This document shows, piece by piece, positions 31,325-56,565 of a stretch of 64,000 nucleotides of DNA (position 1 is its first letter; every line of letters begins with the position of its first letter). The position numbers and the translations under genes are program-made. The notes under the pieces were generated by a model. The model did not search any database. It saw only the letters and a program-made list of their open reading frames with translations, and was not told where the DNA came from. The stretch covers positions 1,521,249 through 1,585,248 of the forward strand of contig CP070761.1 in NCBI GenBank assembly GCA_020348985.1, given 5' to 3'. This stretch comes from Candidatus Thorarchaeota archaeon. GTDB taxonomy: Archaea > Asgardarchaeota > Thorarchaeia > Thorarchaeales > Thorarchaeaceae.

Positions 31325-31401
31325 TCACCATCATTCTTGAAGCTCGACGAGTGACCCTGCTTCGAGACTCCTGGTTCATCTTCTTGGCTCCTCTCTATTT
31401 T

Positions 31402-33174: not shown

Positions 33175-33183
33175 TTCTCAGCC

Positions 33184-34488: not shown

Positions 34489-34547
34489 CTCCCTTTCTAT
34501 CAGTAGAGAATCAAGCTCAGTTCTCTAGAGCAACAGGGATGGCAGTA

Positions 34548-34594
34548 TGAACAATGATAAGAAAGGTCCCAACATACATGTTCAATCTTGAACA
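34548..34594 (-). promoter_or_regulatory. 47-bp regulon element, copy A (before aminotransferase-M28A-deacylase unit)
   Basis: Minus strand: TGTTCA AGAT TGAACA TGTA TGTTGG GACCTTTCTTATCAT TGTTCA. Confidence 0.8.
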
Positions 34595-34744
34595 CGCGAT
34601 GATTGGGACATTCCTCGAAATCGAGTTTTGTGTTGGCTGAGTCAGTCATATCATTGCTCCATTCGTCCAAGGCGGCTCCTTCATTGAAACCCGTACCACA
34701 GAAGACATGTCTATGAGACCTGCCTGAAGGAAGCGCGTGTCTAT

Positions 34745-34791
34745 TGTTCAGCGTTGAACATGTATGTTGGGACCCTTCATATCATTGTTCA
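34745..34791 (+). promoter_or_regulatory. 47-bp regulon element, copy B (before M28 paralog B)
   Basis: TGTTCA GCGT TGAACA TGTA TGTTGG GACCCTTCATATCAT TGTTCA; 42/47 identical to copy A, inverted. Confidence 0.8.
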
Positions 34792-34848
34792 CACCCTGTT
34801 GGATTTGCTCTACAGATCACGCGTTGAATTCTGAGGCAATGGTCGGCT

Positions 34849-36657: not shown

Positions 36658-36677
36658 GAATGAACAATCGAAAGGAA

Positions 36678-36724
36678 TGTTCATTCGTGTACACTGTTGT
36701 TGGGACTCTTATTATGGGTGTTCA
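36678..36724 (+). promoter_or_regulatory. 47-bp regulon element, copy C (before C-N hydrolase)
   Basis: TGTTCA TTCG TGTACA CTGT TGTTGG GACTCTTATTATGGG TGTTCA; extra TGAACA at 36661. Confidence 0.78.
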
Positions 36725-36776
36725 TTCGCGATAAATCATGTAGGACTCGAACTCAGTAACTACAGATTTATGGTAG

Positions 36777-37679
36777 GTGAATCCAAGAATGGAAAGACGT
36801 CTGGGAGTAGCGGGACTCCAGCTTGAGAAAGATCCGTTTGATAGTGACATCAACTTCAAGAAACTGGAGTACATAACTCGGAAGGTCAAGTCTACATTTC
36901 CTTGGGTTGATTTGGTCTTTACTGGAGAACTATACCTCCAGCAATATGGAAGCAGCGATTGGAAAGAGTTTGCTCAACCAATCCCGAATGACATGACAGA
37001 CAGACTGTCTGAAATTGCTCGAGACAACGAGTGCTGGTTTGTACCAGGTTCTTTTTTGGAGAAGGAGAGTGACAAGATATTCAATACCGCACTCGTCTAT
37101 GATCCAAATGGAGACATAGTAGCCAAGTATAGAAAGCTCTATCCTTGGATGCCTTTTGAGGACACAAGTTATGGCACTAGCTTTGTTACATTCGACATTC
37201 CAGGTGTAACGAGGATTGGGATTGTCATATGCTATGATTTGTGGTTTCCTGAGGTTTTCAGGACACTAGCCTGGATGGGTGCCGAGGTAATATTGCAGCC
37301 ATCCGCTACCTATACGCCAGACCGCGCAGCGGAGCTCGTTTTGACTCCAGCTCAGGCAATCATGCATCAATGCTATGTTCTAAACTCGAACGTAATCAGT
37401 GCCATGGGGGGAGGTCTATCTATCTTTGCGGACCCCGAAGGCCGAATCCTACAACAAGTTGGCACACATGAGGAGATTATGACAGAGGTCATCGACTTGG
37501 ATAGGGTTGATTGGATTCGTCAGAATGGATCGTTTGGGATAACTCCCGTGTGGAAGAGCCTAAGAGATTCTCCACTCAGAATGAAGTATCCAGTTTACGA
37601 ACGCTTTGAAGAAGGTGCGATACTCAAGAAGCTAGGGGAAATGAAGGTGCAGAAAAGCATCCGTGAATGGACGGACTAG
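36777..37679 (+). CDS. Carbon-nitrogen hydrolase (nitrilase/amidase superfamily)
   Basis: Catalytic E-K-C triad: FTGEL, YRKLYPW, ICYDLWFPE. Confidence 0.9.
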   Translation: MNPRMERRLGVAGLQLEKDPFDSDINFKKLEYITRKVKSTFPWVDLVFTGELYLQQYGSSDWKEFAQPIPNDMTDRLSEIARDNECWFVPGSFLEKESDKIFNTALVYDPNGDIVAKYRKLYPWMPFEDTSYGTSFVTFDIPGVTRIGIVICYDLWFPEVFRTLAWMGAEVILQPSATYTPDRAAELVLTPAQAIMHQCYVLNSNVISAMGGGLSIFADPEGRILQQVGTHEEIMTEVIDLDRVDWIRQNGSFGITPVWKSLRDSPLRMKYPVYERFEEGAILKKLGEMKVQKSIREWTD

Positions 37680-38707
37680 ATATCATGAGAAACCCCACTC
37701 AGCAATTCTCTACACCTCTTGGAGTATTGTTCACATTGATTCTAATTCTAATGATTCTTGTATTTCCGCAGCCCAGCACAGGTCAATCTGACCAGAGTGA
37801 CTTGACTGGTATTCAGGTGGCGTTGTATACAGGGGGTCCAACAAGTGAATCCAGCCGCGAATCTCTTTCCAGAATGTTCTCATGGATGAACGCAAGTGTC
37901 ACTGTTCTTTCAGGAAGCGCGATAAGGGAAGGTGAACTCGAGAATTTTGATCTAGTTGTCATTCCTGGAGGATATGCACCTGACTTTATAGACGACATAG
38001 GTGCACGAGGGCTTGACAAGATCAGAGATTTCACTAGTAATGGAGGATCTTTCATCGGAGTATGTGCAGGTGCATACTTCGCTTCAGATTACATAATATG
38101 GCAAGGTATACCGACCGAGTATCGACTAGACCTGTTTGATGGTGCTGCTGTTGGTGCCATTGATCAAATCGCCCCTTGGCCAAACTTCCAGATGTGTACA
38201 ATAAGCATCAACCGCAATTCAATTCGGATTGACCTCTCTTCAGAACCGGCTAACCACACGATCATGTATTTCGGGGGCCCTTATTTCCTGCCAAGTGACC
38301 CCAGTGAAATCGAGATTCTGGCAACTTATGATATCAATGATGAAGCAGCCATGATATCTTTCGAGTATGGTCAAGGTAGAGTGTTTCTATCAGGTCCTCA
38401 TCCTGAATGGGAAGAAGATTCAGACCGAGACAATGCTAGTTGGCCTGATGATTTTGACGACAATGGCTCTGAGTGGAACCTAATGCTTAGCGTGTCACTC
38501 TGGCTAACAGAGAATGTGAACAAACCAAGCATTACCGAATTTCAACTGCCACACCTAGTTGGAGTGGCTTTCTTGGTCGTGGGAGCCATCGGCACTGTCG
38601 CCATATTCATACATGTGTTGAGGAATCGTGTCGACTATAGGAATAAATTCTATCAAAGAGGTCCAGAAACGGCAGATTTGCTGATGTTCACCTTTGTCCA
38701 CTCATGA
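37667..38707 (+). CDS. Exported, membrane-anchored class I glutamine amidotransferase-like (BPL_N-type) hydrolase
   Basis: Signal-like N-terminus, VIPGG, GVCAGAY nucleophile elbow, GPHPE, C-terminal TM; likely start ATG 37685. Confidence 0.75.
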   Translation: MDGLDIMRNPTQQFSTPLGVLFTLILILMILVFPQPSTGQSDQSDLTGIQVALYTGGPTSESSRESLSRMFSWMNASVTVLSGSAIREGELENFDLVVIPGGYAPDFIDDIGARGLDKIRDFTSNGGSFIGVCAGAYFASDYIIWQGIPTEYRLDLFDGAAVGAIDQIAPWPNFQMCTISINRNSIRIDLSSEPANHTIMYFGGPYFLPSDPSEIEILATYDINDEAAMISFEYGQGRVFLSGPHPEWEEDSDRDNASWPDDFDDNGSEWNLMLSVSLWLTENVNKPSITEFQLPHLVGVAFLVVGAIGTVAIFIHVLRNRVDYRNKFYQRGPETADLLMFTFVHS

Positions 38708-38741
38708 ACAAAGATGTTGGTCGCATTTTAATCGTTGTACA
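38695..38741 (+). promoter_or_regulatory. 47-bp regulon element, copy D (before ABC transporter)
   Basis: TGTCCA CTCA TGAACA AAGA TGTTGG TCGCATTTTAATCGT TGTACA; extra in-phase TGTTCA at 38685. Confidence 0.72.
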
Positions 38742-38771: not shown

Positions 38772-40715
38772 GTGATACAAGTGAGAAGACCGAATAACAT
38801 CATCCCGTTCCTTCTCATTGGTCTCTTCTTGGTGTCTATGGTTGCATTTGCGCCTGAAGCCTTTGCGCAAGACGACGGCGAGGACGCCGACGTCAGCATT
38901 GTCGTAGGTATGTTCGAGCAACCGGACTTCTTGGGACCAATGATGGCAGGCACCATAGCCGCCTGGGAGTTTCTCAACTGGATGTATGACCCCCTAGTCC
39001 GCTGGGGAGACGACTGGACTATAAAACCAGGACTGGCTGAGAGCTGGGAATGGGCTGACAACGGTACGCAATTGACATTGCATCTTGTGCAGAATGCAAC
39101 ATGGCATGATGGCACTCCCTTCACTTCAGCTGACGTCAACTTCACACTCTTTACTTGGACCTGGCTAGGTTGGTGGGTTGCGCAAACTCCGCGCATCGAC
39201 CACAGGAATATCAAGACCCCTGATGACCACACAGTCATTCTTAATTTTGTTGAGAGTGGCTATGAGAACATCTATGCGTGGTCTCCGGTGTCTCCATTCT
39301 TCTACTATCGTGAGAGCTACGACGGGACTCCCGTGGAGGTTAACCAGGAGTGTTTCCTCACAGGTCTGACATATGTCCCAATCATACCCAAGCATGAATG
39401 GGATCCCCTCATGTGGCATCACCCTGTTTGGGGACTGGAAGGTTCTGGATATGGTGTTACTCTAGAGAATGGCACCTGGGTATACTATGGATACTGGGAC
39501 TATCTCAATTGGGATGGAATCTCTTGGGGCACAATTCTACCTCCATATAACAGATCTGATATCGGAACTGGTCCATTCATCCTGAAGGAATACGAGGTGG
39601 GCGAATACGCGTATTTCGAGGGTAATGATGACTATCACTGGGGTGCACCTAATATCGACAACTTGACCGTCCTATTCTACACCTCAATCGAAACCATGAC
39701 ACAGGCCGTCAAGGCGGGTGAAATTGATTTCTGTGAGACCACCGCCAATTTCCTTGAGACTGGAGAATTTGGCCCTGAAGTGACTGTCAACGAGCAAAGC
39801 TCACTAGGCTGGGAAGCCTTGTTGATCAATCAGGATTGGATATACGCCAATACTAGTGATGCGTTTGCATTGAGGGAACCTGCAGTCAAGGTGGCAATCA
39901 ATCAAGCAGTCAACAAGTCGAACATAGCCAACATCGCTTATCTCGGACATGCCGTGCCTGCGGACTCTGTGATTCACAGTAAGCTGTATAAATGGTTCAA
40001 TGATGAGCTTGTGACACGCGATGTTGGAATCAGCGAGGCAGAAGCCACTCTCGAGGCTGATGGATGGACTCTGAACACTGAAGGAGTCTATGAAAAGACG
40101 CTAAACGGATCTGTGAAGACACTTGAGTTTACTCTCAAATTCATCACAGGCTCTCCGATTGATCTTAGCATAGCACAGCTAATTGAGGCTAACCTCGAAG
40201 ATGCCGGCTTTGACATAACGCTTCAGGCATTGGACGTCTCTACCTTCACAGCAGACCTATTCGCGTACTCCTTTGACCTAGCGATCTCGTTCTGGTCTCA
40301 AATCGGAGATCCGAACAGCATGGCACAATACATGACTTCAACCAGCTGGATCAACCCGACTGGACTTAACATCCCGAGAGTCGATGAAATCTTCTATGAG
40401 CAGCAGCTCGCTACGGACCTCTTCGAAAGACAGGATCTCATTAATGAGATGCAGCAACTTGTCTATGATGAAGCCAGCATTTGTGTCCTTGTTGAATATG
40501 ATGACATTGAACTCTACAGAAATGACCGATTTGTGTTCACACACACAGATTGGTTGAGCGGCATCCTGTCCATGTGGAACTGGGAATCCTGGCTTGGAGC
40601 CGAGCAAGTAGCACCGCCATCATTTCCAATTTCGATGGAGCTGGCAATTATCGCTGGGGCAGGAGTCATCGTTGTAGTGGTGCTCTTCGTGGTTTGGAGG
40701 TCGAAGAAGGGATAG
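38772..40715 (+). CDS. ABC transporter substrate-binding protein, family 5 (peptide/nickel type)
   Basis: Signal peptide, YDPLV, PGLAESWE, WHDGTPFTSADV, IGTGPF, C-terminal TM anchor. Confidence 0.92.
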   Translation: MIQVRRPNNIIPFLLIGLFLVSMVAFAPEAFAQDDGEDADVSIVVGMFEQPDFLGPMMAGTIAAWEFLNWMYDPLVRWGDDWTIKPGLAESWEWADNGTQLTLHLVQNATWHDGTPFTSADVNFTLFTWTWLGWWVAQTPRIDHRNIKTPDDHTVILNFVESGYENIYAWSPVSPFFYYRESYDGTPVEVNQECFLTGLTYVPIIPKHEWDPLMWHHPVWGLEGSGYGVTLENGTWVYYGYWDYLNWDGISWGTILPPYNRSDIGTGPFILKEYEVGEYAYFEGNDDYHWGAPNIDNLTVLFYTSIETMTQAVKAGEIDFCETTANFLETGEFGPEVTVNEQSSLGWEALLINQDWIYANTSDAFALREPAVKVAINQAVNKSNIANIAYLGHAVPADSVIHSKLYKWFNDELVTRDVGISEAEATLEADGWTLNTEGVYEKTLNGSVKTLEFTLKFITGSPIDLSIAQLIEANLEDAGFDITLQALDVSTFTADLFAYSFDLAISFWSQIGDPNSMAQYMTSTSWINPTGLNIPRVDEIFYEQQLATDLFERQDLINEMQQLVYDEASICVLVEYDDIELYRNDRFVFTHTDWLSGILSMWNWESWLGAEQVAPPSFPISMELAIIAGAGVIVVVVLFVVWRSKKG

Positions 40716-40734
40716 CAGTCTAAACAGCAGAAGA

Positions 40735-40762
40735 AGAACAGACAGTATTATCTGTCTGTTCT
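40735..40762 (+). terminator. Intercistronic stem-loop after the substrate-binding protein gene
   Basis: AGAACAGACAG-TATTAT-CTGTCTGTTCT 11-bp stem followed by a T-rich tract. Confidence 0.6.
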
Positions 40763-40813
40763 ATCTATTCTTTTTCTTGTGAAGGTTGTCACGTATAGTT
40801 GAGATGACACAAA

Positions 40814-43546
40814 ATGGGATTGAGAGGAACTGTCGTCAAGAGAATAGTCCAAGCTATCATCACAATCTGGATTGCATTGTCGATTGACTTCATATTCTTC
40901 CATATGCTCCCTGGTAATCCTGCATCACTTCTAGCAAGAAATCCGAACATTGCTGAGATAGTGCAAGAGAGAGTCATTCAGGAGTTTGGGCTCGACCAGC
41001 CCATGCACATTCAATATGGTCTGTTCCTCGTAAACTTCATCTCTGGAAATCTTGGTGTTTCATTTCATTTCCTCGTTCCTGTGCAGGACGTAATATACTC
41101 TAGACTGATGAACACGGTACTCCTAATCTTGCCAGCCACAATTCTGTCCATAATAACTGGCATATGGATAGGCAAGAAAGCGGCGTGGAAAAGAGGAGAG
41201 AAACAGGACGTCGTCGGACTTTTCATATCGCTAGTGACCTATTCGATTCCATCATTTTGGCTGTCAATGTTCTTCATTATGATATTCTCGGTCAACCTAC
41301 ACCTGTTTCCATTGACACCATGGAACCCTGCCATAGGGCCCCAAGACACTTTGGGATTCTGGCTGAACTTGTTCTCTCACCTGGTCTTGCCGTGGGCAGT
41401 GCTGTGGATCGCTCTGATTGGTGTGTTTGCACTAATAATGAGAAATGCTCTCTTGGACGTACTGAGCGAGGACTACATGGTAACGGCGAAAGCTAAAGGA
41501 AGAACCGAGAAAGAACAGCTTGACAAGGAAGCTGTCCCAAATGCAATGATCCCAGTTGCGACCATAATTGCTCTCAATATAGGATTCTCAGTTGCTGGCG
41601 CCCTTCAGGTTGAGGTTGTTTTCTCCTACCCTGGAATTGGAAGACTTCTTTGGGACGGCATACTTTACAGGGACTATCCACTGCTGCAGGCTACTTTCTT
41701 CATGATTACGGTGGTAATTGTCGTTGCCAACCTAATAGCGGATTTCCTGTACTATGCCCTAGATCCCAGAATACGAGTAGGATCGGAGGTCGTCATATCA
41801 GAAGTGAAGAATGATTCTACCCTGAGAGGCTTCCTCCAACCTTTACGTCTACTGCTCATCTTTCTCATAATTCTGAATCTTGGAGCGACTATTGCGTATC
41901 CTGCTTTCGTTGGCTTAACCATAGGTCTCAGCGTATTGGCAATTTGTCTGCTGAGGTGGAAGCAGGTTGGGGAGTATATCCTGACACGTCTAAGATCCTA
42001 TTCTCCAGCGCATCTTGGATTCTTGTGGAGGAATTATCGATACAGACTCCTTACTCACCTGTCGCTTCTTGTCCTTTCAGTCAATCTGATGGTTTTCGTT
42101 GCCATTACGATGTCTGGTGTGTACGGTCTTGAGTGGACTCTTTCATGGGGGAGATCGTTCATAGGCATAGGAGGGTTTCCTCCTTCTATTGGTCTTGAAG
42201 GAGCAGCTCACTCAATCATGGTGGGATTATCTTCAATTGCGCATCCAAGCCTCACAATTGCAGCGCTTGCACTTTCTTTGATTGGCGCGATTATGGGGAG
42301 GAGAAGCAAGACAGAAGGGATGCTTAGGCAGTTCATAGCAACTCCAATGGGAAAGTTCGGAACCATGCTTGTTGCATTCTTTGTCGGTCTTGCCATCTAT
42401 GGTGACATACTTGCACCTTATGATCCAGACCAGCAACTCACTGGCCTGCCATACAGGCGGCCAAGCCCCTTGCCTCTTGATCAGCTAGTACTTGTGTCTG
42501 TAGGATTGGGTTTATTATGTCTTGGATTTGCTATCTGGATTATTGCGTACATTAGAAAGAAACCAAATACTCCAAAGCATTTCACCAAATTGCTTGTCAG
42601 CATAGTGATAGCATTCCTGGGGATTCTCTTAGGGTCTTATTCCTACAGCAAAAACCACCTGCCCGGGATTGTGACTTCTATTGCCATCTTTCTTGTCGGC
42701 GTCTTCCTGTTGTTGAAAAATCGTTCCTTTCCAAGGGATTACATCAGTGAACTGAGAGTTTCATATTTGTCATCGATTTCAGAGAGTTTGGTGACTATCG
42801 GTCTCATATCATTCATGTATTCAGCCTTGGTGGTCATAACTGGGAATCCGACCACATACCCAGGCTTTCACATCCTCGGTACAGACCAATTGGGTAGGGA
42901 TGTTTTCAGCCAGATGGTGATTGGAGTGAGAATAACTCTGATTATTGGCTTGGTTGCAACTGTAATCACAATGACCATAGGAACCATGATAGGACTAATT
43001 GCGGGATACTATGGAGGTCTGTCTGATTCGTTTCTCATGAGATTCACAGATGTCTTCTTTGTCATTCCGACCTTGGTGATAATGATCATACTCGCAGCCA
43101 TACTTCCACCCTCAATCTACACACTCATCTTTGTCATCGGAATATTCTCTTGGCCCTCCACAGCAAGAATTGTCCGTGGACAGGTCTTGACCATAAAGGA
43201 ACGCACCTACATTGAACGTGTGCGATCTGTTGGAGGTAGCGATGTCTATATCATGGCTAGACACGTTCTACCAGCCGTTGCCCCGCTTATCGTCGCAAAT
43301 ACAGTGCTTGTCACTGCCTATGCAATCCTTTCGGAGGTCGTCCTGGACTTCTTCGGGTTGGGCGACCCAAACATGATTAGCTGGGGAACAATGCTCTATC
43401 AGGCCTTTGGCGGGGGTGCTATGTCGAGCAATCTATGGTGGCTTGTGTTTCCACCAGGCATAGCAGTAATCGTGCTTCTGATGGGAGTATCAATGATGGG
43501 TTACGCAATGGATGAGATAGCCAATCCAAGACTGAGGAGGAGGTAA
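40814..43546 (+). CDS. Fused DppB/DppC-type ABC permease with extra TM insertions
   Basis: N-half LPGNP, DYMVTAKAKG, RDYPLLQ, LDPRIR; C-half LGTDQLGRD, LMRFTD, NPRLRRR. Confidence 0.9.
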   Translation: MGLRGTVVKRIVQAIITIWIALSIDFIFFHMLPGNPASLLARNPNIAEIVQERVIQEFGLDQPMHIQYGLFLVNFISGNLGVSFHFLVPVQDVIYSRLMNTVLLILPATILSIITGIWIGKKAAWKRGEKQDVVGLFISLVTYSIPSFWLSMFFIMIFSVNLHLFPLTPWNPAIGPQDTLGFWLNLFSHLVLPWAVLWIALIGVFALIMRNALLDVLSEDYMVTAKAKGRTEKEQLDKEAVPNAMIPVATIIALNIGFSVAGALQVEVVFSYPGIGRLLWDGILYRDYPLLQATFFMITVVIVVANLIADFLYYALDPRIRVGSEVVISEVKNDSTLRGFLQPLRLLLIFLIILNLGATIAYPAFVGLTIGLSVLAICLLRWKQVGEYILTRLRSYSPAHLGFLWRNYRYRLLTHLSLLVLSVNLMVFVAITMSGVYGLEWTLSWGRSFIGIGGFPPSIGLEGAAHSIMVGLSSIAHPSLTIAALALSLIGAIMGRRSKTEGMLRQFIATPMGKFGTMLVAFFVGLAIYGDILAPYDPDQQLTGLPYRRPSPLPLDQLVLVSVGLGLLCLGFAIWIIAYIRKKPNTPKHFTKLLVSIVIAFLGILLGSYSYSKNHLPGIVTSIAIFLVGVFLLLKNRSFPRDYISELRVSYLSSISESLVTIGLISFMYSALVVITGNPTTYPGFHILGTDQLGRDVFSQMVIGVRITLIIGLVATVITMTIGTMIGLIAGYYGGLSDSFLMRFTDVFFVIPTLVIMIILAAILPPSIYTLIFVIGIFSWPSTARIVRGQVLTIKERTYIERVRSVGGSDVYIMARHVLPAVAPLIVANTVLVTAYAILSEVVLDFFGLGDPNMISWGTMLYQAFGGGAMSSNLWWLVFPPGIAVIVLLMGVSMMGYAMDEIANPRLRRR

Positions 43547-43551
43547 GCAAC

Positions 43552-44511
43552 ATGACCGAGGACGTCTTGGAGATAAGAAACCTGTACATTTCGTATCAAA
43601 CTAAGCAAGGAAAAGTTAAGGCTGCCGAAGATGTCAGCTTCAAGATTCGCTGCGGCGACTTCGTTGGTCTTAGTGGGGAGAGTGGATGCGGAAAAACAAC
43701 GACTGCACTGGCGGTTATGCATCTTCTACCAAAAGAAGGGATCGTTGAAGGTGGTGAAATACTCTTCAACGGTAGAAACGTTCTCGAATACAAAGACCAA
43801 GAAGTCCGTGAATACTTGTGGCGCGATGTTTCCATGATCTTTCAAGGTGCCATGAATGCACTTAATCCGGTTCACAAGGTCATCGACCAAATGACAACTG
43901 CCATCCAGATTCACGAGGGTGTGTCTCATGAGGAAGCGAGAGAACGTTCTTTGGAGCTTATAGACTCTGTTGGAATCGATATTGCAAGAGCCGGTGGTTA
44001 CCCTCATGAAATGAGTGGGGGTATGAAACAAAGACTGATGATTGCTCTTGCACTAGTATGCCATCCATCTCTTGTCATAGCAGATGAGCCCACTACCGCA
44101 TTAGACGTAATGGTGCAAGCCCAGATTCTGGAGCTGCTGAAACAACTCAGAAACAGGACCAATCTATCCCTTCTTCTCATCACACATGATTTGTCAGTTA
44201 TTGCTGAAACCTGTGACCACACTATCATTATGTATGCGGGACGAATTGTCGAAATGGGGAGTACTTCGAAGATCTTCAGTGACCCAGAGCATCCCTATAC
44301 AATGAAGCTAATCTCGTCATTCCCAAGTATACTATCAGACAAGGGAATTGACTACATACCAGGAAATCCTCCTGACTTGATCAACCCTCCAAGTGGGTGT
44401 AGGTTCCATCCCAGATGTGATTTCACCATTAATCAATGTAAGGAGAATTCTCCACCGCTAGAAGAACAAGACAATCATCTTGTAGCCTGTTGGAGGAGAA
44501 GTGATATCTAG
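43552..44511 (+). CDS. Peptide ABC transporter ATP-binding subunit (DppD-type)
   Basis: GESGCGKT, MSGGMKQR, DEPTTALD, C-terminal GCRFHPRC. Confidence 0.93.
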   Translation: MTEDVLEIRNLYISYQTKQGKVKAAEDVSFKIRCGDFVGLSGESGCGKTTTALAVMHLLPKEGIVEGGEILFNGRNVLEYKDQEVREYLWRDVSMIFQGAMNALNPVHKVIDQMTTAIQIHEGVSHEEARERSLELIDSVGIDIARAGGYPHEMSGGMKQRLMIALALVCHPSLVIADEPTTALDVMVQAQILELLKQLRNRTNLSLLLITHDLSVIAETCDHTIIMYAGRIVEMGSTSKIFSDPEHPYTMKLISSFPSILSDKGIDYIPGNPPDLINPPSGCRFHPRCDFTINQCKENSPPLEEQDNHLVACWRRSDI

Positions 44512-45524
44512 TGTCAGATGTCATTCTCGAAGCCAAGGACATTAAGAAATACTTCACAGTAAGAAGTGGACTCCTCGCTACTATTCTTCTCAACAGGGAG
44601 CCAACTTACATTAAAGCTGTGGACGGGGTCGACCTCAGTATCCGAAGAGGTGAGGTCTTCGCCATTGCAGGAGAAAGTGGGTGTGGCAAGACTACAATGG
44701 CGAGGTTGATGGTCCAACTGGAGTTACTGACAGACGGCCAGATATTCTTCGAGGGAGAAGAGGTCTCGAAGATGAATCAATCTGAGTTCAAGCCATATCG
44801 GCGAAGAATACAGATGATCTTCCAGGACCCCTATGGGGCACTCAGTAATAACATGACAATCTCAGAAGTGATAGCAGAACCTCTTAGAATACACAAGATA
44901 TACAGTAGCCCTCAAGAAGAGGAAGAGGCTGTCAGGCAGGCAATGGAGGATGTGGGATTAAGACCAGCAGAGGATTTTGTGGACAGGTTGCCGCACGAAT
45001 TGAGTGGAGGTCAGAGACAACGAGTTGCAGTGGCGGCTGCCCTCGTACTAAAACCAGACCTGTTGATTGCAGATGAGCCCGTTTCAATGCTCGATGTCTC
45101 TATGCGTGGTCAGATTCTCAACCTTCTGTTGGAACTGAGAGACAAGAAGGGAATCACGATCGTGATCATAACACACAACCTTGCTGTTGCCAAGCAGATT
45201 TCTGATCGAATTGCAGTTGCGTATCTTGGGAAGATTGTTGAAATAGGTGACACCAGAACGATCATCGAGAATCCTAAGCATGCCTATACAAAGGCTCTAC
45301 TCTCAGTTGTTCCAGTGCCAGAAATGAACGTTGAGAGAGAGCGAATACTCCTTTCGGGCGAAACTCCGAATCCTGTGAATATCCCACCAGGATGCCGCTT
45401 TCACACTAGATGTCCATTCGGGTCGTCTCGTTGTGAAGTTGATGAACCAGAGCTACGTGAACTTCCTGATGGCAGAAGAGTCGCCTGCTATGATGCACAA
45501 GAAGAAGCGATCTGCCATAGCTAG
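44511..45524 (+). CDS. Peptide ABC transporter ATP-binding subunit (DppF-type)
   Basis: GESGCGKT, LSGGQRQR, DEPVSMLD, GCRFHTRC. Confidence 0.93.
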   Translation: MSDVILEAKDIKKYFTVRSGLLATILLNREPTYIKAVDGVDLSIRRGEVFAIAGESGCGKTTMARLMVQLELLTDGQIFFEGEEVSKMNQSEFKPYRRRIQMIFQDPYGALSNNMTISEVIAEPLRIHKIYSSPQEEEEAVRQAMEDVGLRPAEDFVDRLPHELSGGQRQRVAVAAALVLKPDLLIADEPVSMLDVSMRGQILNLLLELRDKKGITIVIITHNLAVAKQISDRIAVAYLGKIVEIGDTRTIIENPKHAYTKALLSVVPVPEMNVERERILLSGETPNPVNIPPGCRFHTRCPFGSSRCEVDEPELRELPDGRRVACYDAQEEAICHS

Positions 45525-46658: not shown

Positions 46659-46797
46659 GAACAAACCCACCGGTTCGTGTTCAAGACATCTATTCCAGTT
46701 ATAGATTCGTGAACATAAGCATTCCGAAGCAGTGAGGTTTGTTGAATCTTTGAACAAGGTCATGACGAAGTGTCTTTCTCATGTGCACCCTTGTTCA
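46658..46797 (-). promoter_or_regulatory. Cluster of regulon hexamers including degenerate 47-bp copy F (46751-46797)
   Basis: Hexamers at 46658, 46678, 46710, 46751, 46782, 46792; minus strand TGAACA-N4-TGCACA-N25-TGTTCA keeps the consensus spacing. Confidence 0.62.
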
Positions 46798-48417
46798 TTC
46801 GTGAAGGTGGTCGCCCATGAGAGTCCCACGAATGAAGAATTTCTCAAATTCACCGTATGAGGCTAATTCTACATATCGAGCAGAATCCGCAATTTCTTCT
46901 GCTATCTCCCTATGAGCTATTGACAACAGCATCTTCTTTGCACCGTCTCCGGCTGCGTTGCCAACTTGAACAACACGATTCGGATCAATGGCGGGCAAGA
47001 GTCCAATGGAGACTGCGCTTTCGGGATTGATGTATGTCCCAAATGCTCCAGCTAGATAGACAGCGTCGATTTCCGTCAATGCAACATCTGCCTCTCTAAT
47101 GAGGATGTGAGTGCCTGCTAGGATTGCGCTCTTGGCAAGTTGGACTTGACGAACATCCTTTTGCGTGAACAATATTCGAGACTCAGAGTCATGCTCCCCC
47201 TTCTCGACAAGGACATAGGACGCCACCGACGGACCTACATGAATGATTCGATTCGACTCCTGCAATCTTCCGTCTTCGTCAAGCAAGCTATGCTTGAGTA
47301 GTTCTGAGACAATATCTACTATTCCCGATCCGCATATTCCTCTGGGTACACCGCCGCCGATTACTTCAATCTCGGCAGGCTGAGAAGGATCATCGATTGT
47401 AACATGTTCAATCGCACCTTCCTGACCTCTCATTCCCTGAGATATCGTAGCCCCTTCGAATGCAGATCCGGCTGCAGCTGAACAGCAAAAGAGCTCACCG
47501 TATTTGGACAACACAATCTCACCATTGGTTCCAATATCAGCACCGAGAACAACATCTTCAGACTGGTCGAGCCTCTGCGAAAGAATGAACGCTACGGTGT
47601 CCCCTCCCACAAATCCAGCGATATTCGGTGAGCAATAGACTTGGGCGGCCGAAACTTGGCCAAGCCCAACAACCTTTGAATCGGCGTTGAATGAATGTTT
47701 CATTGCTGGTTCATATGGGGCAAAGCCTAATGACGAAGTGTCTATTCCCAAGAATAGGTGATGCATTGCTGTGTTACCAACTACGGAGATTCGGCCAACT
47801 GCTTCAGAGGAAACCTGGCCTGCTTCGCATACTTCCTTAATCAGTCCGTCGATCGCTTGAACGACCAAGGACTGAAGACTGGCTGCACCCTCATCATTCT
47901 GTAAGGCATGAGTGATTCTTGTGACTACGTCCTCACCATATTCAATTTGAGGGTTGAGCATAGAAGCGCATCCAATCTGTGCCCCGTCCTTCAAGCCAAG
48001 AAGATAGGCAACAATAGTAGTAGTGCCAAGGTCAATGGCAACGCCATATTCACCGTCGATGGGCGCGTCAATAGCAATCTCATCGGTTGTGATTAGATGT
48101 TCAGCAAGAATCTTACTTCGACCTTCAACACGTGTCAGAATCGCTCTACAATGGGCCTTTGCTGTGTGTTCACAAGCAAGACGAACTCCGCGTCTGATAT
48201 CTTCGCCTTTGAGGTGAAGCGAGTCGATCTTGGTCGGCGATGGTTTGGGCTTAAGTATGATTCTACACTTGCCACATGTTCCTTTGCCTCCGCACTCAGC
48301 CGGTATATGCAAACCCATTCTTCTTGCTGCCTCTAGAAAAGAAGTATTGGAGTCCAAAAGGATTCGTAGCCCTGAAGGCTCGAATACTACTAACCACCTC
48401 TCTTCCAAGAATGTCAC
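46795..48417 (-). CDS. Reductive activator of corrinoid proteins (RACo; 2Fe-2S + ASKHA/DUF4445)
   Basis: CGGKGTCGKC...RLAC, DLGTTT, GNTAMHHL, DIGTNGE, GICGSG, QLAKSAI, LAGAFG, GNAAG. Confidence 0.92.
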   Translation of the reverse strand: MTFLEERWLVVFEPSGLRILLDSNTSFLEAARRMGLHIPAECGGKGTCGKCRIILKPKPSPTKIDSLHLKGEDIRRGVRLACEHTAKAHCRAILTRVEGRSKILAEHLITTDEIAIDAPIDGEYGVAIDLGTTTIVAYLLGLKDGAQIGCASMLNPQIEYGEDVVTRITHALQNDEGAASLQSLVVQAIDGLIKEVCEAGQVSSEAVGRISVVGNTAMHHLFLGIDTSSLGFAPYEPAMKHSFNADSKVVGLGQVSAAQVYCSPNIAGFVGGDTVAFILSQRLDQSEDVVLGADIGTNGEIVLSKYGELFCCSAAAGSAFEGATISQGMRGQEGAIEHVTIDDPSQPAEIEVIGGGVPRGICGSGIVDIVSELLKHSLLDEDGRLQESNRIIHVGPSVASYVLVEKGEHDSESRILFTQKDVRQVQLAKSAILAGTHILIREADVALTEIDAVYLAGAFGTYINPESAVSIGLLPAIDPNRVVQVGNAAGDGAKKMLLSIAHREIAEEIADSARYVELASYGEFEKFFIRGTLMGDHLHE

Positions 48418-49323
48418 CTAACTTATCCTGTAACGAGGATGTGTCTTGTCAATGGGGGTTCGAGTTTCAAGCAAAATACCCGATAGCGCTACATCAATCA
48501 TTGCAATAGACGGGTAGACAATTGGTGCATCTTGTACCGGGCCGTACAGGACAAAGTCAGCCCCTAAGACAACAGGCATCAGATTGGATCCGACGAAAGC
48601 AGGCTTTTTCGCTTCATCTCCAAACTTCGGAACCAACCCCCTCCAAGTACTAACAGCATTGTGTGCGCCGCAGCCAACAGGGTATCCTTGTTTTTCTTTG
48701 ATAGTTTGTAGTGCTTTACAAGCTAGGCCTAGAGTGAGTAGGTCTGCAACACCTGTGTCGATGAGCAAGTTTGTGAAACCAGAATTCTTTGCTTTTTTTA
48801 TTAGGGAATCAGCCAATTCAACTCTCTTCGTGGCTGATGCCATGGCTTCTGACGAGAAAGTGAGAAGCACTACATTCTTGAGGCCAGTATCCTGGAACCG
48901 GGAATAGACTTCGCCTGAAGATTCAGGAGTCAGGGAATTCAAAACCACTCTATGAAGAAGACCAGCATCGCTTGCAGCATTCACACCGGCAAGATTGACT
49001 GCTGTTTGGTCTGATCCATCAATCATGAGTGGAGAATCTGTCATGTCGGCTAGCAATCGGATGTATCTGTCGGCTGCCTCTGGAGATATCGCAACGACAT
49101 CTAACATGCTGGGCAATCCGGTCTTTTCAGAAGTCTCCTCCAAATTCTGGAGGACATCCTCTGTTCCCGCTACATCAATTCTGCCCGATTTGGGATCTAA
49201 AACGAGTCTGTCACCTGTGTAGAAAATTGACCCTACTAGGACTGTGGGATTGACACCAGGTTGTCCACCTATCTTTACTCCACCGATTTCAAGTATCTTT
49301 TGTTCGACTTGATATTCGAACAA
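48418..49323 (-). CDS. mtrH: MtrH-like methylcorrinoid:H4MPT methyltransferase (soluble, no other Mtr subunits)
   Basis: IGGVKIGGQPG..PTVLVGSIFY, GCGAHNA, GADFVLYGP; TTG 49323 preceded by GGAGGTGA. Confidence 0.85.
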   Translation of the reverse strand: MFEYQVEQKILEIGGVKIGGQPGVNPTVLVGSIFYTGDRLVLDPKSGRIDVAGTEDVLQNLEETSEKTGLPSMLDVVAISPEAADRYIRLLADMTDSPLMIDGSDQTAVNLAGVNAASDAGLLHRVVLNSLTPESSGEVYSRFQDTGLKNVVLLTFSSEAMASATKRVELADSLIKKAKNSGFTNLLIDTGVADLLTLGLACKALQTIKEKQGYPVGCGAHNAVSTWRGLVPKFGDEAKKPAFVGSNLMPVVLGADFVLYGPVQDAPIVYPSIAMIDVALSGILLETRTPIDKTHPRYRIS

Positions 49324-49372
49324 GGGTCTCACCTCCAATAATGAGCGTCGACGCGACCCCACGTTAGATTGA

Positions 49373-50752
49373 TTAATAGAGGAATCTCACACCGAGGTCC
49401 GCAACCTCTTGCTTCACTCTTTCATATATCTCGTAGCACTCCTTTGAAGGTCTACCGGTCACAGGATCACAGCACTCTTGGAACGTTTTGCCCCTTGGTG
49501 GGTCACCAACCCTGTCAGCAAATCTCGGGATGATTCTCTTTACAATCTCGTTTGCATCATCCCTTGTGATACCAGCAGACGCGTAGGCAACCTCCGAGGC
49601 GAACATTGGCTCAATTGGTGTCAGATAATCTGTGTACTTCCCTCTGGCAACGCCTCCGGTCTCAATTGACCCTCCTGAAGATATTCCGCCAATGAATTCT
49701 GCAGCAAACTCGTAAAGCACCATCTCGGTACAGGGGCCCGCAGCAGTGTAGTTGTAATATAGCGCTGGCACCTGTGTATTCCTTGACACAGCCTGCAGGT
49801 ATTGGCTGGCCACCCAGATTAGCTCTGGTGTGGAACTTGAGGTATACTTGAGGTGGATCGGGAAGCACAGTGTCCAGGATGCGCCAAGGGTCATTATTGC
49901 CATTATGTGAAAAGCCGTGGACGTGATTGCTGTTCCTTCTGCTCCCCCTGCAAAGCCACCATAGATGGGACCATGAATCCCTGCGATTGGAACATTCAGT
50001 GATTGTAGAAGTGCTGCACGATTCAGCAAATCAAAATCTGTCTTTAGCTCAGCAAGCTGAGCAATCATGTATCCGTCTGTCTTCCGTAGTCCAAAATCGG
50101 GATGCAAACCTGAAGCAAGGGCGATAGCGGACTCTGCGGTCCCAATAGCATTCATGATGGGTAGTCCAGGTCGCCCAGCTCTTCTCAAAGCCTCCCGCCC
50201 CAGAACCACAGTTCGTATACTACCCTCGATTTCGAGTGGTGATTTCGCACGAATGCTCATATCGCCGACATTAGCCAGGCAGGGAGTGGTAATCGCGTTT
50301 GCAATCGGTATCAGTTCTGCATAGTTTTGAACAAGTTTCATGAACACGTTCTCACTAGACACAGTTACCCCCCCGGCCCCTGCGAAAATCCATGGTTTCT
50401 CCTTTGACTCTGGCTTCCTTGGTAGCAGAGTTCGTTGTTCCATACCCTCGCCCAGAAGTGCATGGTCAAAGGATGTGTTGATGCTGTCACGAACCTCCTT
50501 CTCTGTGAACGAGATTACTCGTTCAGTGTCCTTGTTGAATACTCCGATCTCGACGATAAGGTCAAAAGCTGCTTTGAATACTGAATCTGCTAGCCCGTCA
50601 TCAGAGGAAATCACGATGTTAGGATCGTACGTGACATCATATTCTTTAACAAGCTCTTGGACTCGCGGAGCAAAGATTCGCAAATCGTAGTCCTTTTCCA
50701 AGCAGGGCTTTCCTTCAAGAGACCTTCGAGTAATCTCCAGTATGTTCAGCAT
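49373..50752 (-). CDS. mtmB: Monomethylamine:corrinoid methyltransferase (MtmB) family homolog, non-pyrrolysine
   Basis: DDGLADSVFKAA, DTERVI, SPLE, AGRPG, ELK, GGFAGGAEG, AGPCTEM, F.ECCD; 459 aa uninterrupted, no in-frame TAG. Confidence 0.85.
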   Translation of the reverse strand: MLNILEITRRSLEGKPCLEKDYDLRIFAPRVQELVKEYDVTYDPNIVISSDDGLADSVFKAAFDLIVEIGVFNKDTERVISFTEKEVRDSINTSFDHALLGEGMEQRTLLPRKPESKEKPWIFAGAGGVTVSSENVFMKLVQNYAELIPIANAITTPCLANVGDMSIRAKSPLEIEGSIRTVVLGREALRRAGRPGLPIMNAIGTAESAIALASGLHPDFGLRKTDGYMIAQLAELKTDFDLLNRAALLQSLNVPIAGIHGPIYGGFAGGAEGTAITSTAFHIMAIMTLGASWTLCFPIHLKYTSSSTPELIWVASQYLQAVSRNTQVPALYYNYTAAGPCTEMVLYEFAAEFIGGISSGGSIETGGVARGKYTDYLTPIEPMFASEVAYASAGITRDDANEIVKRIIPRFADRVGDPPRGKTFQECCDPVTGRPSKECYEIYERVKQEVADLGVRFLY

Positions 50753-50756
50753 TCAC

Positions 50757-51404
50757 TCATCCCTTCCTTTCCTCAATCAGTCTAATTGCTTCACGCACAG
50801 CCTCCGGCGCAGTCTCGGCAAAGCCATCAGCACCAATTTCATCAGCCCATTCCTGGTTAGTTGGGCCGCCGCCAACCATGACAATGAACCTGTCGCGTTT
50901 TCCAGTCTCCTGCAGATAGTCGATGACATCCTTTTGGCCGCCAAGAGTAGAAGTCATGAGAGCTGAGATTGCGATTATGTCGGCATCGATTTTCTCCGCC
51001 TCTTCCACGAACCTTGATGTTGCAACATCGCAGCCGAGGTCGGTCACCGCAAAACCATTAGCAACAAGCATGGCCTTGAGGATGTTCTTCCCAATCTCGT
51101 GAATATCACCACGAACCGTTCCAACCACGACTCTTCCTGCTACAGGTACTTCTTCTTTTGGCATCTTTGGTAGAATCACATCCAAAGCCGCCATCATAGC
51201 TTCTCCGGAAAGCATGAGATTTGTGAGGAATATCTCCATTCGCTCGAACTGCTCACCAACATGTTTGGCCCCTTCGGAAACACCCTTCTCAAGAGCCACC
51301 AAAGGACTGACGCCAGCTTCAAGAGCAGCTTCTGCGTATTGGGTGACTTTCTCAGCATCTCCTTCAATAATGGCTTCTTTCAGTTTGGCAATGTCTTCTG
51401 ACAT
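50757..51404 (-). CDS. Methyltransferase cognate corrinoid protein (MtmC/MttC family)
   Basis: GTVRGDIHEIGKN (DxHxxG), SALMTST, VGGGP; start moved to ATG 51404 because the longer ORF overlaps regulon copy E. Confidence 0.92.
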   Translation of the reverse strand: MSEDIAKLKEAIIEGDAEKVTQYAEAALEAGVSPLVALEKGVSEGAKHVGEQFERMEIFLTNLMLSGEAMMAALDVILPKMPKEEVPVAGRVVVGTVRGDIHEIGKNILKAMLVANGFAVTDLGCDVATSRFVEEAEKIDADIIAISALMTSTLGGQKDVIDYLQETGKRDRFIVMVGGGPTNQEWADEIGADGFAETAPEAVREAIRLIEERKG

Positions 51405-51443
51405 GTTCCTGACATCCATCGAGATAATGAGTAGACATCTGGA

Positions 51444-51490
51444 TGAACAGACACAAAAGCACTCCCAACACCTGTGAACACTCTTGAACA
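51444..51490 (-). promoter_or_regulatory. 47-bp regulon element, copy E (before methyltransferase operon)
   Basis: Minus strand: TGTTCA AGAG TGTTCA CAGG TGTTGG GAGTGCTTTTGTGTC TGTTCA. Confidence 0.78.
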
Positions 51491-51540: not shown

Positions 51541-53376
51541 TTACCTAATATCCTTCAATCCGAGTCTCTCGACGGTTTCATCTGTGGGAATTCCATTCTT
51601 GTCCCAGCCGCGCAGCTCATAGAATCTGTCAAGACAGGCCTCAAAATCCGCTCTATCAACGAAAGAACGCATTCCCTCAGCAGGGCCAGAAGCAACTGGC
51701 TGCCAGAATCGTGGAGGGAGTTCATCATCCTTTCTTGAGACACCTTCTCTTACGTTGAATAGCCGAGTAAGGGTCTCTACTCTCTCTGCAAAGACCTTCA
51801 CACTTTCCTCATCGTATTCAAGTCCTGTGGCACCATTAAGCAAGCGAATCTTCTGATTATGGCTTAGAGGCAAGTGGTACGTAAAATGACATACAACAAG
51901 TGAATCTGTCAAGTGTTTCTCGTCCCTAGCCTTTGTCATGGATTCGACCACATCTATCGCTGACGAAATCGGCTTGTCAGTTGTTGATGGCCAACCTCTA
52001 AGGTGACTTGCACCTACTTCAGCAGTTGCATAGGAAAGACCCATCCCCTTCTTTCCTCGAGGGTCCCAAGCAGCCACAGATAGTCCCTTTACATGGACGG
52101 CAAGCTCTTCACTGCCTTTCCCAATTCTTTCAGCTGCTCTCCTCACACCGTTGGCCAAAATGTCACCAATGCCTTCTCTTCCGGCAATCATCTGGAGCAG
52201 TTCCATTGCCGCCGCACCATCGCCGAATCTCATGGAAAAGCCAAGATCATCTTCCGTTATGATGCCCCTTTCGAATGCCTCCATCGCAAACGCCAGAACT
52301 GAACCTGCCGCTATTGTGTCGATGCCGAGATCATCGCAAAGGTGATTGAGTTGGAGAAGGATATACGGATCGCTTATCCCCAGATTGCCACTCAACATAG
52401 CCTCAGTTTCATATTCGGAAGTTACCTCCACAGCCATCTTTGGAGCTCTCGGATCAGCTACCCTGTGAGCATGCGTACACCTCATTATGCACTGGGGACA
52501 TGACAAGTGCTGACCAGAATACCATTCATGCATAGCTTCAGGTTGCACCTTCTCGTTCTCTTCGAAAAAGCTTGTCTGCCAATTTCGTGTGGGAAACTGG
52601 CCACGTTCGTTGGAGACCTCAATAAGAAAAGATGTTCCATACCTCCTGAAGTCAAAATTCCATGCATCAGTGGCCATATCCTTCCATGAAGTAGTCACTT
52701 CACGATTGACTTCACTGATTGCATCGGAATCATATGCTTCAATCATACCAGAACCTCTGACCACAACTGCTTTGAGATTCTTTGACCCCATCACAGCTCC
52801 AGGACCACCTCGGCCTGTTTGATGAGCGAGTTCGGAGCCGGCCGCAGCAATCAGCGACAGATTCTCCCCTGCTGGACCTATGACATACACTATGTGATCG
52901 TCACCAAATCGCTCGCGTAGAATCCTGGTTGAATCGTGAATCCCTCTGCCCCAAAGGTCTTCTGCACTCTCTAGACGCAGAGAGTCATCTTCAAGAACAA
53001 GCACAGTAGGCTTGTCTGCCTTGCCTTTGACGCACAATACATCGTAGCCTGATTTCTTTATTTCCCTTCCCAGGGCGTGTCCACAATGTGAATCTAGGTA
53101 GAGCCCCGTGAGAGGTGACTTGGTCACTAACGTCCACCTGGCTACGCTAGGACCATTTAGCCCTTGCATAGGTCCTGTGAGGAAGAACAGAACATTCTCT
53201 GGCCTAAGGGGGTCGACTCCTGCTTCCAGTTCTCTATACAGTAGGTATGCTCCAAGTCCCTTTCCGCCCAGGAATTGCTCGTAGACACTTGTATCAAGGC
53301 TCTCCTCATTTGTGGATCCTGTTGACAAATCAACCCAAAGGATTTTGCCAGTCCAACATTCATGTGTCATGTCCAA
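51541..53376 (-). CDS. aor: Aldehyde:ferredoxin oxidoreductase (tungstopterin AOR family)
   Basis: LGGKGLG, KSPLTG, IGPAGE, GRGG.GAVMGSKNLKA, CPQC..RC, CDDLGID, DPRG, GASH. Confidence 0.92.
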   Translation of the reverse strand: MDMTHECWTGKILWVDLSTGSTNEESLDTSVYEQFLGGKGLGAYLLYRELEAGVDPLRPENVLFFLTGPMQGLNGPSVARWTLVTKSPLTGLYLDSHCGHALGREIKKSGYDVLCVKGKADKPTVLVLEDDSLRLESAEDLWGRGIHDSTRILRERFGDDHIVYVIGPAGENLSLIAAAGSELAHQTGRGGPGAVMGSKNLKAVVVRGSGMIEAYDSDAISEVNREVTTSWKDMATDAWNFDFRRYGTSFLIEVSNERGQFPTRNWQTSFFEENEKVQPEAMHEWYSGQHLSCPQCIMRCTHAHRVADPRAPKMAVEVTSEYETEAMLSGNLGISDPYILLQLNHLCDDLGIDTIAAGSVLAFAMEAFERGIITEDDLGFSMRFGDGAAAMELLQMIAGREGIGDILANGVRRAAERIGKGSEELAVHVKGLSVAAWDPRGKKGMGLSYATAEVGASHLRGWPSTTDKPISSAIDVVESMTKARDEKHLTDSLVVCHFTYHLPLSHNQKIRLLNGATGLEYDEESVKVFAERVETLTRLFNVREGVSRKDDELPPRFWQPVASGPAEGMRSFVDRADFEACLDRFYELRGWDKNGIPTDETVERLGLKDIR

Positions 53377-55812: not shown

Positions 55813-56565
55813 TCACCACTTGTCATGAACATGCTTCTTCATTATGAAATCATCAACGGCATCAACTGCCAATTGGGGTAGATCAGTTATGACACCGTCA
55901 ACCCCCATCATCAATTGCTCGGTAATCAGCTCTTCATCGTTTATTGACCACGGATAGACCTTCAGACCAGCTTCGTGCGATGATTTGACGAGCTCCTCTG
56001 TCACAAGCCAGAAGAGGGGGTTAACTGCATTTGCGTGAAGATTGCCTGCATACTTGGCCAGTTGGTCTATCTCAGTAGAAACCAAGACTGCTGTCACTGC
56101 ATCATCATTCAGGGCTCTGATGATACCCAAGCTGGGGTGATTGAACGATGAGAAGATGACTTGATCAAGCATGTCGGTTTCAATGACCAAGTTGACCGCT
56201 GCCTCTTCGATGCCAGTGGCCTTCAACTCAATGTTGACACCAAATCGTCCGCGAGCAAATCTCAAGACTTCCTCGAGGAGTGGAACCTTTTCACCACACC
56301 CTGCATCGAGGTTGAAAAGAACATCCAGGGTTGTCTCATCTACATTCCCGACCCCGTCTGTGGTTCTTGAGAGCTCTCTGTCGTGCATACAGACAAGGTA
56401 TCCATCCGATGTACTCCAAACATCAGTTTCTATCATGTCTACGCCCATTTGCCAAGCAACTCGAAAAGACTTCATCGTATTCTCAGGTGCATGCCCTGCG
56501 GCACCCCTATGTCCAATCACAATGATTTCTCTCAGACCCTCATCTCCAAGATATCCAAGTTTCAA
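55813..56565 (-). CDS. Glycerophosphodiester phosphodiesterase
   Basis: IGHRGA, PENT, IETDV, MHD, NIELK, GVITD. Confidence 0.92.
   Translation of the reverse strand: MKLGYLGDEGLREIIVIGHRGAAGHAPENTMKSFRVAWQMGVDMIETDVWSTSDGYLVCMHDRELSRTTDGVGNVDETTLDVLFNLDAGCGEKVPLLEEVLRFARGRFGVNIELKATGIEEAAVNLVIETDMLDQVIFSSFNHPSLGIIRALNDDAVTAVLVSTEIDQLAKYAGNLHANAVNPLFWLVTEELVKSSHEAGLKVYPWSINDEELITEQLMMGVDGVITDLPQLAVDAVDDFIMKKHVHDKW

Follow-up and report, generated by a model that had tools for sequence, protein, structure and literature searches.

A pyrrolysine-free MtmB homolog in a predicted corrinoid methyl-transfer operon of a Candidatus Thorarchaeota archaeon

The stretch of DNA analyzed here (the window) comprises 64,000 nucleotides of the 3.16-Mb single-contig genome of a Candidatus Thorarchaeota archaeon (assembly GCA_020348985.1, contig CP070761.1, positions 1,521,249 to 1,585,248). 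On its minus strand, at positions 49373..50752, lies the gene for P0001, a methyltransferase (MT1) of the MtmB family that lacks pyrrolysine (Pyl). The gene is the third in a row of six minus-strand genes, which read, in this order, aldehyde:ferredoxin oxidoreductase (AOR), corrinoid protein, MtmB homolog, MtrH homolog, RACo-type activase and a 412-aa protein, with gaps of 49, 4, 10, 0 and 31 bp between them. Judged by their sequences, these genes encode the parts of a corrinoid-based methyl-transfer system of the standard kind, namely the MT1, the corrinoid protein, the second methyltransferase (MT2) and the activase.

The MtmB homolog and its pyrrolysine site

The open reading frame (ORF) of P0001 runs uninterrupted through 459 codons, from ATG to TAA. 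Its translation matches the Pfam profile PF05369 (MtmB) with an E-value of 4.5e-95 (319.5 bits; cut-off 25), whereby residues 3-454 cover profile positions 2-449 of 450, and it can be aligned end to end with MtmB1 of Methanosarcina barkeri (1L2Q; E 1.1e-67, HMMER). None of the NCBIfam models was reached. No other family matched, and the membership of the MtmB family, proposed earlier by a model that had seen the DNA only (the sequence-only reading), is well founded. The AlphaFold2 (AF2) model, derived from 21 members of the clade, reaches a mean pLDDT of 90.8 and predicts the barrel fold of the M. barkeri enzyme (1L2Q, 1NTH and 1TV2; TM 0.95, root-mean-square deviation 1.4 Å, 455 columns). The MttB/MtgB family comes next in the fold comparison, with a TM of about 0.55. 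The genome encodes no MtmB homolog other than P0001, the closest relatives of which (77-80% identity) are found in metagenome-assembled genomes named Thor-, Hermod-, Sif- or Promethearchaeota.

The absence of pyrrolysine is evident from the gene itself. In the HMMER alignment, the query segment AGRPGLPIM pairs with AGRPGMGV-X of 1L2Q, and the X, which is Pyl202, stands opposite Met200 of P0001, encoded by the ATG at 50153..50155 (minus strand). The loop that follows Met200 is four residues longer than in MtmB1. Methanosarcinales genes for Pyl-containing MtmB read GRPGM[GA][IV]-TAG-GPETSLSA at this site, in agreement with the Methanosarcina motif that the sequence-only reading had quoted. That reading had also placed the codon for residue 200 correctly, at 50155-50153, and its claim that P0001 has no in-frame TAG stands, since all 459 codons are open. 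TAG is the commonest stop codon in the window, where it ends 25 of 43 ORFs. A search of the whole genome for PylS (TIGR02367) gave a best match of only 20.5 bits, far below the cut-off of 178, pylBCD not being included in the search, and a tRNA with a CUA anticodon was not found among the 35 tRNAs recovered by ARAGORN, which form an incomplete set. MtmB homologs are carried by 48 of 301 sampled genomes of the phylum, and an in-frame TAG occurs in none of these 48. Glu229, Glu259 and Gln333, which we take to be pyrrolysine contacts in MtmB, are replaced by Met229, Ile259 and Tyr333; we found no paper in support of these contacts and do not use them as evidence. Residues 199-200 lie within a beta-strand in the AF2 model, in agreement with the strand-anchored position of Pyl202 in the MtmB barrel (PMC9842639).

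The place of P0001 in the family was examined with a tree of 393 members (FastTree only, LG+gamma, midpoint root), for which 50%-identity representatives, Asgard paralogs, metagenome loci, Pyl-MtmB sequences read through TAG and Methanosarcinales non-Pyl homologs were used as input. P0001 falls in a clade of 188 leaves with a support of 1.0, the named members of which belong to the Asgard archaea, Bathyarchaeia and Thermoplasmatota. The motif GRPG[LI]P[IF]MN is practically invariant in this clade, and the Met-Asn pair at the Pyl-equivalent site is 99% conserved, which shows that its occurrence in P0001 is not due to chance. The residues with a conservation of 95% or more in the clade that are unlike those of Pyl-MtmB are W121, A126, T155-T156-P157, P198, M200, N201, T205, A206, S362, E364, P379 and P382, which lie at the predicted ends of the barrel strands. 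Among 301 sampled species genomes of Bathyarchaeia, orthologs from the clade were detected in the seed genome only.

The Pyl-MtmB sequences (L074, L075) group with a Methanosarcinales non-Pyl clade (P0184, P0273, L048) in one clade of 24 leaves (support 0.96), which lies across the midpoint root from the clade of P0001; identity between P0001 and the Methanosarcinales non-Pyl clade is 34.5%. In the latter, a gene for a 216-aa corrinoid protein precedes that of a 459-aa MT1, an arrangement that has also been described for MtqCB of Methanococcoides methylutens Q3c. Most likely, this clade contains MtqB, a label that we base on taxon, length and gene order. The candidate orthologs have masses of 49.9-50.0 kDa against 49,382 Da for the Q3c protein, a mismatch that is to be expected for orthologs at 80-90% identity, and the reported branching of MtqB near Pyl-MtmB (PMC13044021) agrees with the 24-leaf grouping. 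The alignment and phylogeny thus place P0001 outside any characterized clade, separate from both Pyl-MtmB and the inferred MtqB clade.

Non-Pyl homologs of MtmB have long been known, also in Asgard archaea (PMC9723677, PMC9635834), and the branch to which P0001 belongs was recognized already. MtqB of strain Q3c, described in March 2026, demethylates tetramethylammonium and choline (PMC13044021) and is the only non-Pyl MtmB homolog with a demonstrated function. The characterized non-Pyl members of the MttB and MtmB families all use quaternary amines (PMC13044021). A homolog that is induced by dichloromethane in 'Ca. Formimonas warabiya' is uncharacterized (PMC9768040), and the bathyarchaeial MT1 for lignin, called MtgB, is a protein of about 300 aa that is unrelated to P0001 (PMC10989822). 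The statement in the sequence-only reading that no substrate has been established for non-Pyl MtmB proteins therefore no longer applies to the family as a whole, in view of MtqB, and it remains valid for the clade of P0001.

The operon and its 47-bp element

Immediately upstream of P0001 is the gene for the cognate corrinoid protein (50757..51419, minus strand, in an ORF that extends to a TTG at 51491), which is recognized by PF02310, PF02607 and TIGR02370 (216.8 bits, cut-off 215.3) and carries the DxHxxG motif as DIHEIG at ORF residue 129. The position of a regulatory element at 51444-51490, discussed below, indicates that the ATG at 51419 is the likely start, giving a protein of about 220 aa; the orthologs have about 216. 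Downstream follow a predicted MT2, a putative methyl-corrinoid:pterin methyltransferase of the MtrH/MtgA family (48418..49362, minus strand; PF02007, E 2.3e-69), which scores 193 bits with the MtgA model (cut-off 550), and an ATP-dependent reductive activase of the RACo type (46795..48417, minus strand; PF14574, PF17651, PF00111), in which a 2Fe-2S domain at the N-terminus is combined with the middle domain and the C-terminal ASKHA domain of RACo. Since this is the sole homolog of a corrinoid reductive activase found in the genome, it probably serves all three corrinoid proteins that the genome encodes.

The operon ends with the gene for a putative regulator of 412 aa, P0121 (45525..46763, minus strand), which has an N-terminus resembling ribbon-helix-helix (RHH) proteins, followed by an AF_0136_C-like region or tandem V4R- or H-NOX-like domains. 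The protein gave no match with Pfam; a language-model feature score of 0.95 connects it to the AF_0136_C family, and its structural neighbors are RHH and H-NOX/V4R-like proteins, the model being poor (pLDDT 67) and the H-NOX matches weak. Orthologs with 44-48% identity adjoin an MtmB homolog in seven loci of Thorarchaeia. At the upstream side lies the AOR gene (51541..53376, minus strand; PF01314, PF02730; 1AOR, E 1.5e-109), one of nine AOR paralogs in the genome. Divergent from it is a gene (53724-55697, plus strand) for a very hydrophobic polytopic membrane protein of 657 aa without a Pfam match, which has no second copy in the genome and does not recur as a neighbor elsewhere.

It is useful to compare this gene set with known systems. 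With the Pyl-dependent MtmB1/MtmC of M. barkeri (1L2Q, 1NTH, 1TV2), P0001 shares the Pfam family and the TIM-barrel (TM 0.95) at 32% identity, a DxHxxG corrinoid protein gene immediately upstream, and the GRPG motif before the key strand. The differences lie in the Met for Pyl202, the extended loop, the Pyl machinery, none of which was found, and the clade. Furthermore, the predicted MT2 is of the MtrH type whereas M. barkeri uses the coenzyme M (CoM)-specific MtbA, and the activase is a RACo with a 2Fe-2S domain instead of RamA. MtqB and MtqC of strain Q3c resemble the present pair in that both MT1 proteins are non-Pyl MtmB homologs of 459 aa with a corrinoid protein gene directly upstream, but the MtqB-like clade, as labeled above, is sister to Pyl-MtmB, is only some 34.5% identical to P0001 and has different barrel-end residues; the methyl acceptor of MtqB is CoM, whereas a pterin is proposed for the P0001 system. 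The glycine betaine system MtgB/MtgC/MtgA of Desulfitobacterium hafniense works in the way that is proposed for the P0001 system. Its MT1 is likewise of the non-Pyl kind and acts together with a corrinoid protein and a RACo-type activase, and its MT2, of the MtrH family, delivers the methyl group to a pterin that feeds the Wood-Ljungdahl pathway. Its MT1 (2QNE) belongs to a different family, however, MttB/COG5598, with a TM of 0.56 to the P0001 model.

Whether genes in the surroundings could give a clue to the substrate, as the sequence-only reading suggested, turned out to be a fruitful question, since an element of 47 bp ties the operon to a nearby importer and to amidohydrolases. Five aligned copies have the form TGTTCA-N4-TGWWCA-N4-TGTTGG...TGTTCA, and a search of the 3.16 Mb in which two substitutions were allowed and the fourth hexamer was required gave exactly five sites, all in this island. 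These are located upstream of the corrinoid protein gene (51444..51490, minus strand), upstream of the gene for an ABC binding protein (38695..38741, plus strand), upstream of the genes for a CN-hydrolase and a BPL_N-like protein (36678..36724, plus strand), and, as a divergent pair, at the genes for a class-III aminotransferase and an M28 peptidase (34548-34594, minus strand, and 34745-34791, plus strand); only one of two M28-peptidase genes is preceded by a copy. In six orthologous loci of Thorarchaeia, too, the corrinoid protein gene is immediately preceded by this element. It is a predicted promoter/operator, and its sharing implies that the demethylase operon belongs to one small regulon together with the importer and amide-cleaving enzymes. 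P0121 is a plausible candidate for the regulator that acts on it.

The importer is of the Opp/Dpp/Nik type (38772..45524, plus strand; Pfam) and is composed of fused permeases, two ATPases and a family-5 binding protein (38772-40715, plus strand), which among solved structures is closest to NikA and peptide binders. Next to it are the amide and amine genes (30023..38707; Pfam), which encode an M20 peptidase, two M28 peptidases, the class-III aminotransferase, the CN-hydrolase and a BPL_N/DJ-1-like protein. These are syntenic in other Thorarchaeial genomes, where the ABC importer, corrinoid protein and MtmB homolog follow each other in this order on one strand, the importer directly upstream, and the 412-aa gene is convergent. 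In the present genome, importer and operon are convergent: the module is inverted relative to the importer, MtrH and RACo genes have been gained, and the AOR gene lies upstream. The distribution of the module is patchy. An MtmB homolog occurs in 14 of the 76 genomes of the family to which the organism belongs and in neither of the two of its genus, and four of five relatives that were checked (both same-genus genomes and G016 and G055 of the same family) lack the module as well as a close ortholog of the binding protein. Further along the window, a plus-strand gene (61986-63251) encodes a protein of 421 aa with a C-terminal small GTPase domain of the Ras/Roc/Arf type, typical of Asgard archaea.

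Neighbors across the clade and other corrinoid genes

To describe the gene context in the clade, 94 loci were collected from GTDB genomes and 79 metagenome contigs, the window being included. All neighboring ORFs were clustered, and recurrent clusters were named by Pfam. A corrinoid protein gene is the most frequent neighbor (67/94), followed by non-Pyl MttB homologs (30/94), saccharopine-dehydrogenase-like (SacDH-like) proteins and ABC ATPases (21/94 each), RACo (16/94), class-III aminotransferases (14/94), MtrH (13/94), AAA+VWA proteins and DUF2284 (12/94 each), AOR and Lrp/AsnC regulators (7/94 each), aldehyde dehydrogenases (ALDH; 5/94) and DAO-type flavoproteins (4/94). ALDH and AOR taken together amount to 12 of the 94. 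Transporters that recur are of the Liv, PotD-like, family-5, MFS and EamA types, and the recurrent binding proteins are of the amino-acid, polyamine or peptide type. Among the nearest non-Asgard relatives (58-61% identity) two layouts were seen. In one, a SacDH gene, a corrinoid protein, the MtmB homolog and MtrH are accompanied by a convergent RACo gene, and in the other a corrinoid protein gene is flanked by two MtmB homologs beside an AOR and a ferredoxin gene. From their gene content, the clade loci look like islands for the catabolism of an amine, or of a compound resembling an amino acid, that carries several N-methyl groups, a picture from which no single substrate follows.

Some non-Asgard loci (L092, L096, L102, L103, L118-L122, L131, L132, L135 and L158) form islands with up to three non-Pyl MttB homologs and with genes for SacDH-like, class-III aminotransferase, ALDH or AOR, AAA+VWA, DUF2284 and LarA-like proteins. 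Such an arrangement looks like an uncharacterized pathway for N-demethylation in multiple steps.

The genome itself encodes, in total, three corrinoid proteins, four MtrH homologs and one non-Pyl MttB homolog. The second corrinoid protein gene stands beside a gene for a methyltransferase of the URO-D family (L167, G000:C1:1096000-1111000; ORFs 6351-7517 and 7523-8188, both minus strand), flanked by genes for an MFS_2 transporter and a GH94-like glycoside phosphorylase; its gene content suggests that the locus may encode an O-demethylase or a system like CdmB/MtoB, with a methylated sugar or some other compound as the donor. The third is found with another MtrH homolog, without a recognizable MT1 (L166, G000:C1:464000-480000; ORFs 5931-6875, 7416-8093 and 9211-11217, plus strand, and 8090-9013, minus strand). 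This locus also contains a gene for a 314-aa protein of PF14196 (ATC-hydrolase-like) and, adjacent, one for a eukaryote-type topoisomerase IB. The sole MttB homolog, free of pyrrolysine and 492 aa long (L168, G000:C1:3041000-3057000; ORF 7886-9364, minus strand), has no corrinoid protein gene among the neighbors that were checked.

Probable role and alternatives

On balance we favor, with moderate confidence, that P0001 is the MT1 of a four-component system that demethylates an imported N-methylated donor, is co-regulated with the importer island, and channels the methyl group via a pterin to the Wood-Ljungdahl pathway. In this proposal, P0001 would transfer a methyl group from a donor other than monomethylamine to Co(I) of the adjacent corrinoid protein, after which the MtrH-family enzyme would pass it on to tetrahydromethanopterin (H4MPT) or folate. 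Corrinoid protein that is accidentally oxidized to Co(II) would be re-reduced by RACo at the expense of ATP. The genome contains both of the pathway enzymes that were searched for, CdhC (216 bits) and methenyl-H4MPT cyclohydrolase (MCH, 427 bits), from which it follows that a pterin-based Wood-Ljungdahl route exists as methyl acceptor. The methylated pterin may thus enter the archaeal version of this pathway and yield acetyl-CoA via carbon monoxide dehydrogenase/acetyl-CoA synthase (CODH/ACS), or be oxidized to CO2. Expression of the operon would be switched on, through the shared 47-bp promoter/operator, together with the Opp/Nik-type importer, the amidohydrolases and the aminotransferase, and the RHH-type protein at the operon end probably reads the element. 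Because of this joint control, the most likely donor is an N-methylated compound of the amine, amino-acid or amide kind that is taken up by the cell and may be a quaternary ammonium, or else a product of its hydrolysis.

Several other roles deserve consideration. Activity with tetramethylammonium or choline would be an obvious suggestion in view of MtqB, which belongs to the same superfamily, has the same length of 459 aa and is encoded in the same corrinoid-protein-then-MT1 order as in MtqCB, the more so as a gene for a glycerophosphodiester phosphodiesterase (GDPD) at 55813-56565 might provide choline. We nevertheless find this role quite unlikely for P0001, which is distant in sequence from the Methanosarcinales non-Pyl clade, a group that sides with Pyl-MtmB in the tree, and has other residues at the barrel-strand ends (IMN vs [MV]G[IM]M and IHGP vs CMCP). 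Neither the scanned genes of the window nor the recurrent neighbor families include a choline transporter of the BCCT or OpuA type. The GDPD was dropped as a choline source, as it is not a recurrent neighbor in the 94 loci and is not preceded by the 47-bp element. That P0001 would simply be a monomethylamine methyltransferase, or one for another simple methylamine, that does without pyrrolysine is suggested by the NCBI names of close relatives, which are given as monomethylamine:corrinoid methyltransferase, and by the trace activity that MtqB displayed with monomethylamine (PMC13044021). Such a function is very unlikely, considering that the Pyl position is taken by Met and that W121, T155-T156-P157, N201, S362 and E364 are unlike Pyl-MtmB. 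Moreover, no characterized non-Pyl member of either family has a simple methylamine as its main substrate (PMC13044021), and the operon shares its regulation with an island for amide import, not with ammonium or methylamine transporters.

The AOR gene, which precedes the corrinoid protein ORF at a distance of only 49 bp and is found near clade members in six other loci, both Bathyarchaeial and metagenomic (L051, L052, L095, L099, L104, L158), draws attention to the demethylation of O- or S-methyl compounds, e.g., methoxylated aromatic aldehydes or acids, of which AOR would handle the aldehyde group. The location of the 47-bp promoter between the AOR and corrinoid protein genes puts AOR outside the regulated unit, and with nine paralogs in the genome a chance adjacency has to be reckoned with; AOR was therefore downgraded as a member of the operon. 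Across the clade, AOR is a much rarer neighbor than MttB homologs and enzymes that handle amines, and the known O-demethylating MT1 enzymes belong to other families, URO-D/MtvB and the bathyarchaeial MtgB of about 300 aa (PMC10989822, PMC13222342). All this makes an O- or S-methyl donor unlikely. An MT1 that is a non-catalytic relic of evolution, or serves another purpose such as corrinoid handling, would fit the absence of the module from same-genus relatives and is extremely unlikely: the frame is intact, 78-80% identity is maintained across several Thorarchaeial genera, the barrel-end residues are conserved at 95% or more in 188 sequences, and the MT1 is paired with a corrinoid protein behind a conserved promoter element of its own.

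The proposal of an imported N-methylated donor meets some difficulties too, and the following points weigh against it. Within the clade, the pocket positions 229, 259, 260 and 333 are variable, which, together with the subclade-specific neighbors, means that the clade may be heterogeneous in substrate; indeed the sets of neighboring genes vary by subclade. The 94 loci were not dereplicated and include many short metagenome contigs. The MtrH homolog of the operon stays just below the cut-off of NF002142 (277.5 against 287 bits), and a NikA-like binding protein could carry a metal complex instead of a methyl donor. In the relative G027, the M20, CN-hydrolase, aminotransferase, BPL_N-like and ABC genes are present without the demethylase module, which marks the demethylase as an add-on that may act on a subset of the imported compounds only.

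A more speculative suggestion, which we put forward with considerable doubt, is that the GRPG[LI]P[IF]MN clade represents a new substrate class and demethylates N-methylated compounds derived from imported peptides or amides, such as methylated lysine or another amino-acid betaine. If this is true, sediment archaea of the Asgard and Bathyarchaeial groups would have a direct link between the scavenging of peptides and amides and the Wood-Ljungdahl pathway, and the SacDH-like, class-III aminotransferase and aldehyde-oxidizing neighbors would deal with the backbone that is left after demethylation.

In anoxic sediments, non-Pyl MtmB homologs are common and widely distributed, yet a substrate is known for only one of them, MtqB. 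The locus described here is a good entry to the largest untested archaeal branch, as four components are present in one operon, and it also offers a genome-unique element that ties this operon to a defined importer and amidohydrolases, along with a candidate for a ligand-sensing regulator. Identification of its substrate would overturn no existing concept. It would reveal the methylated nitrogen compounds on which Asgard and Bathyarchaeial archaea with an acetogenic or fermentative metabolism live, and would thereby have a bearing on carbon and nitrogen cycling in sediments.

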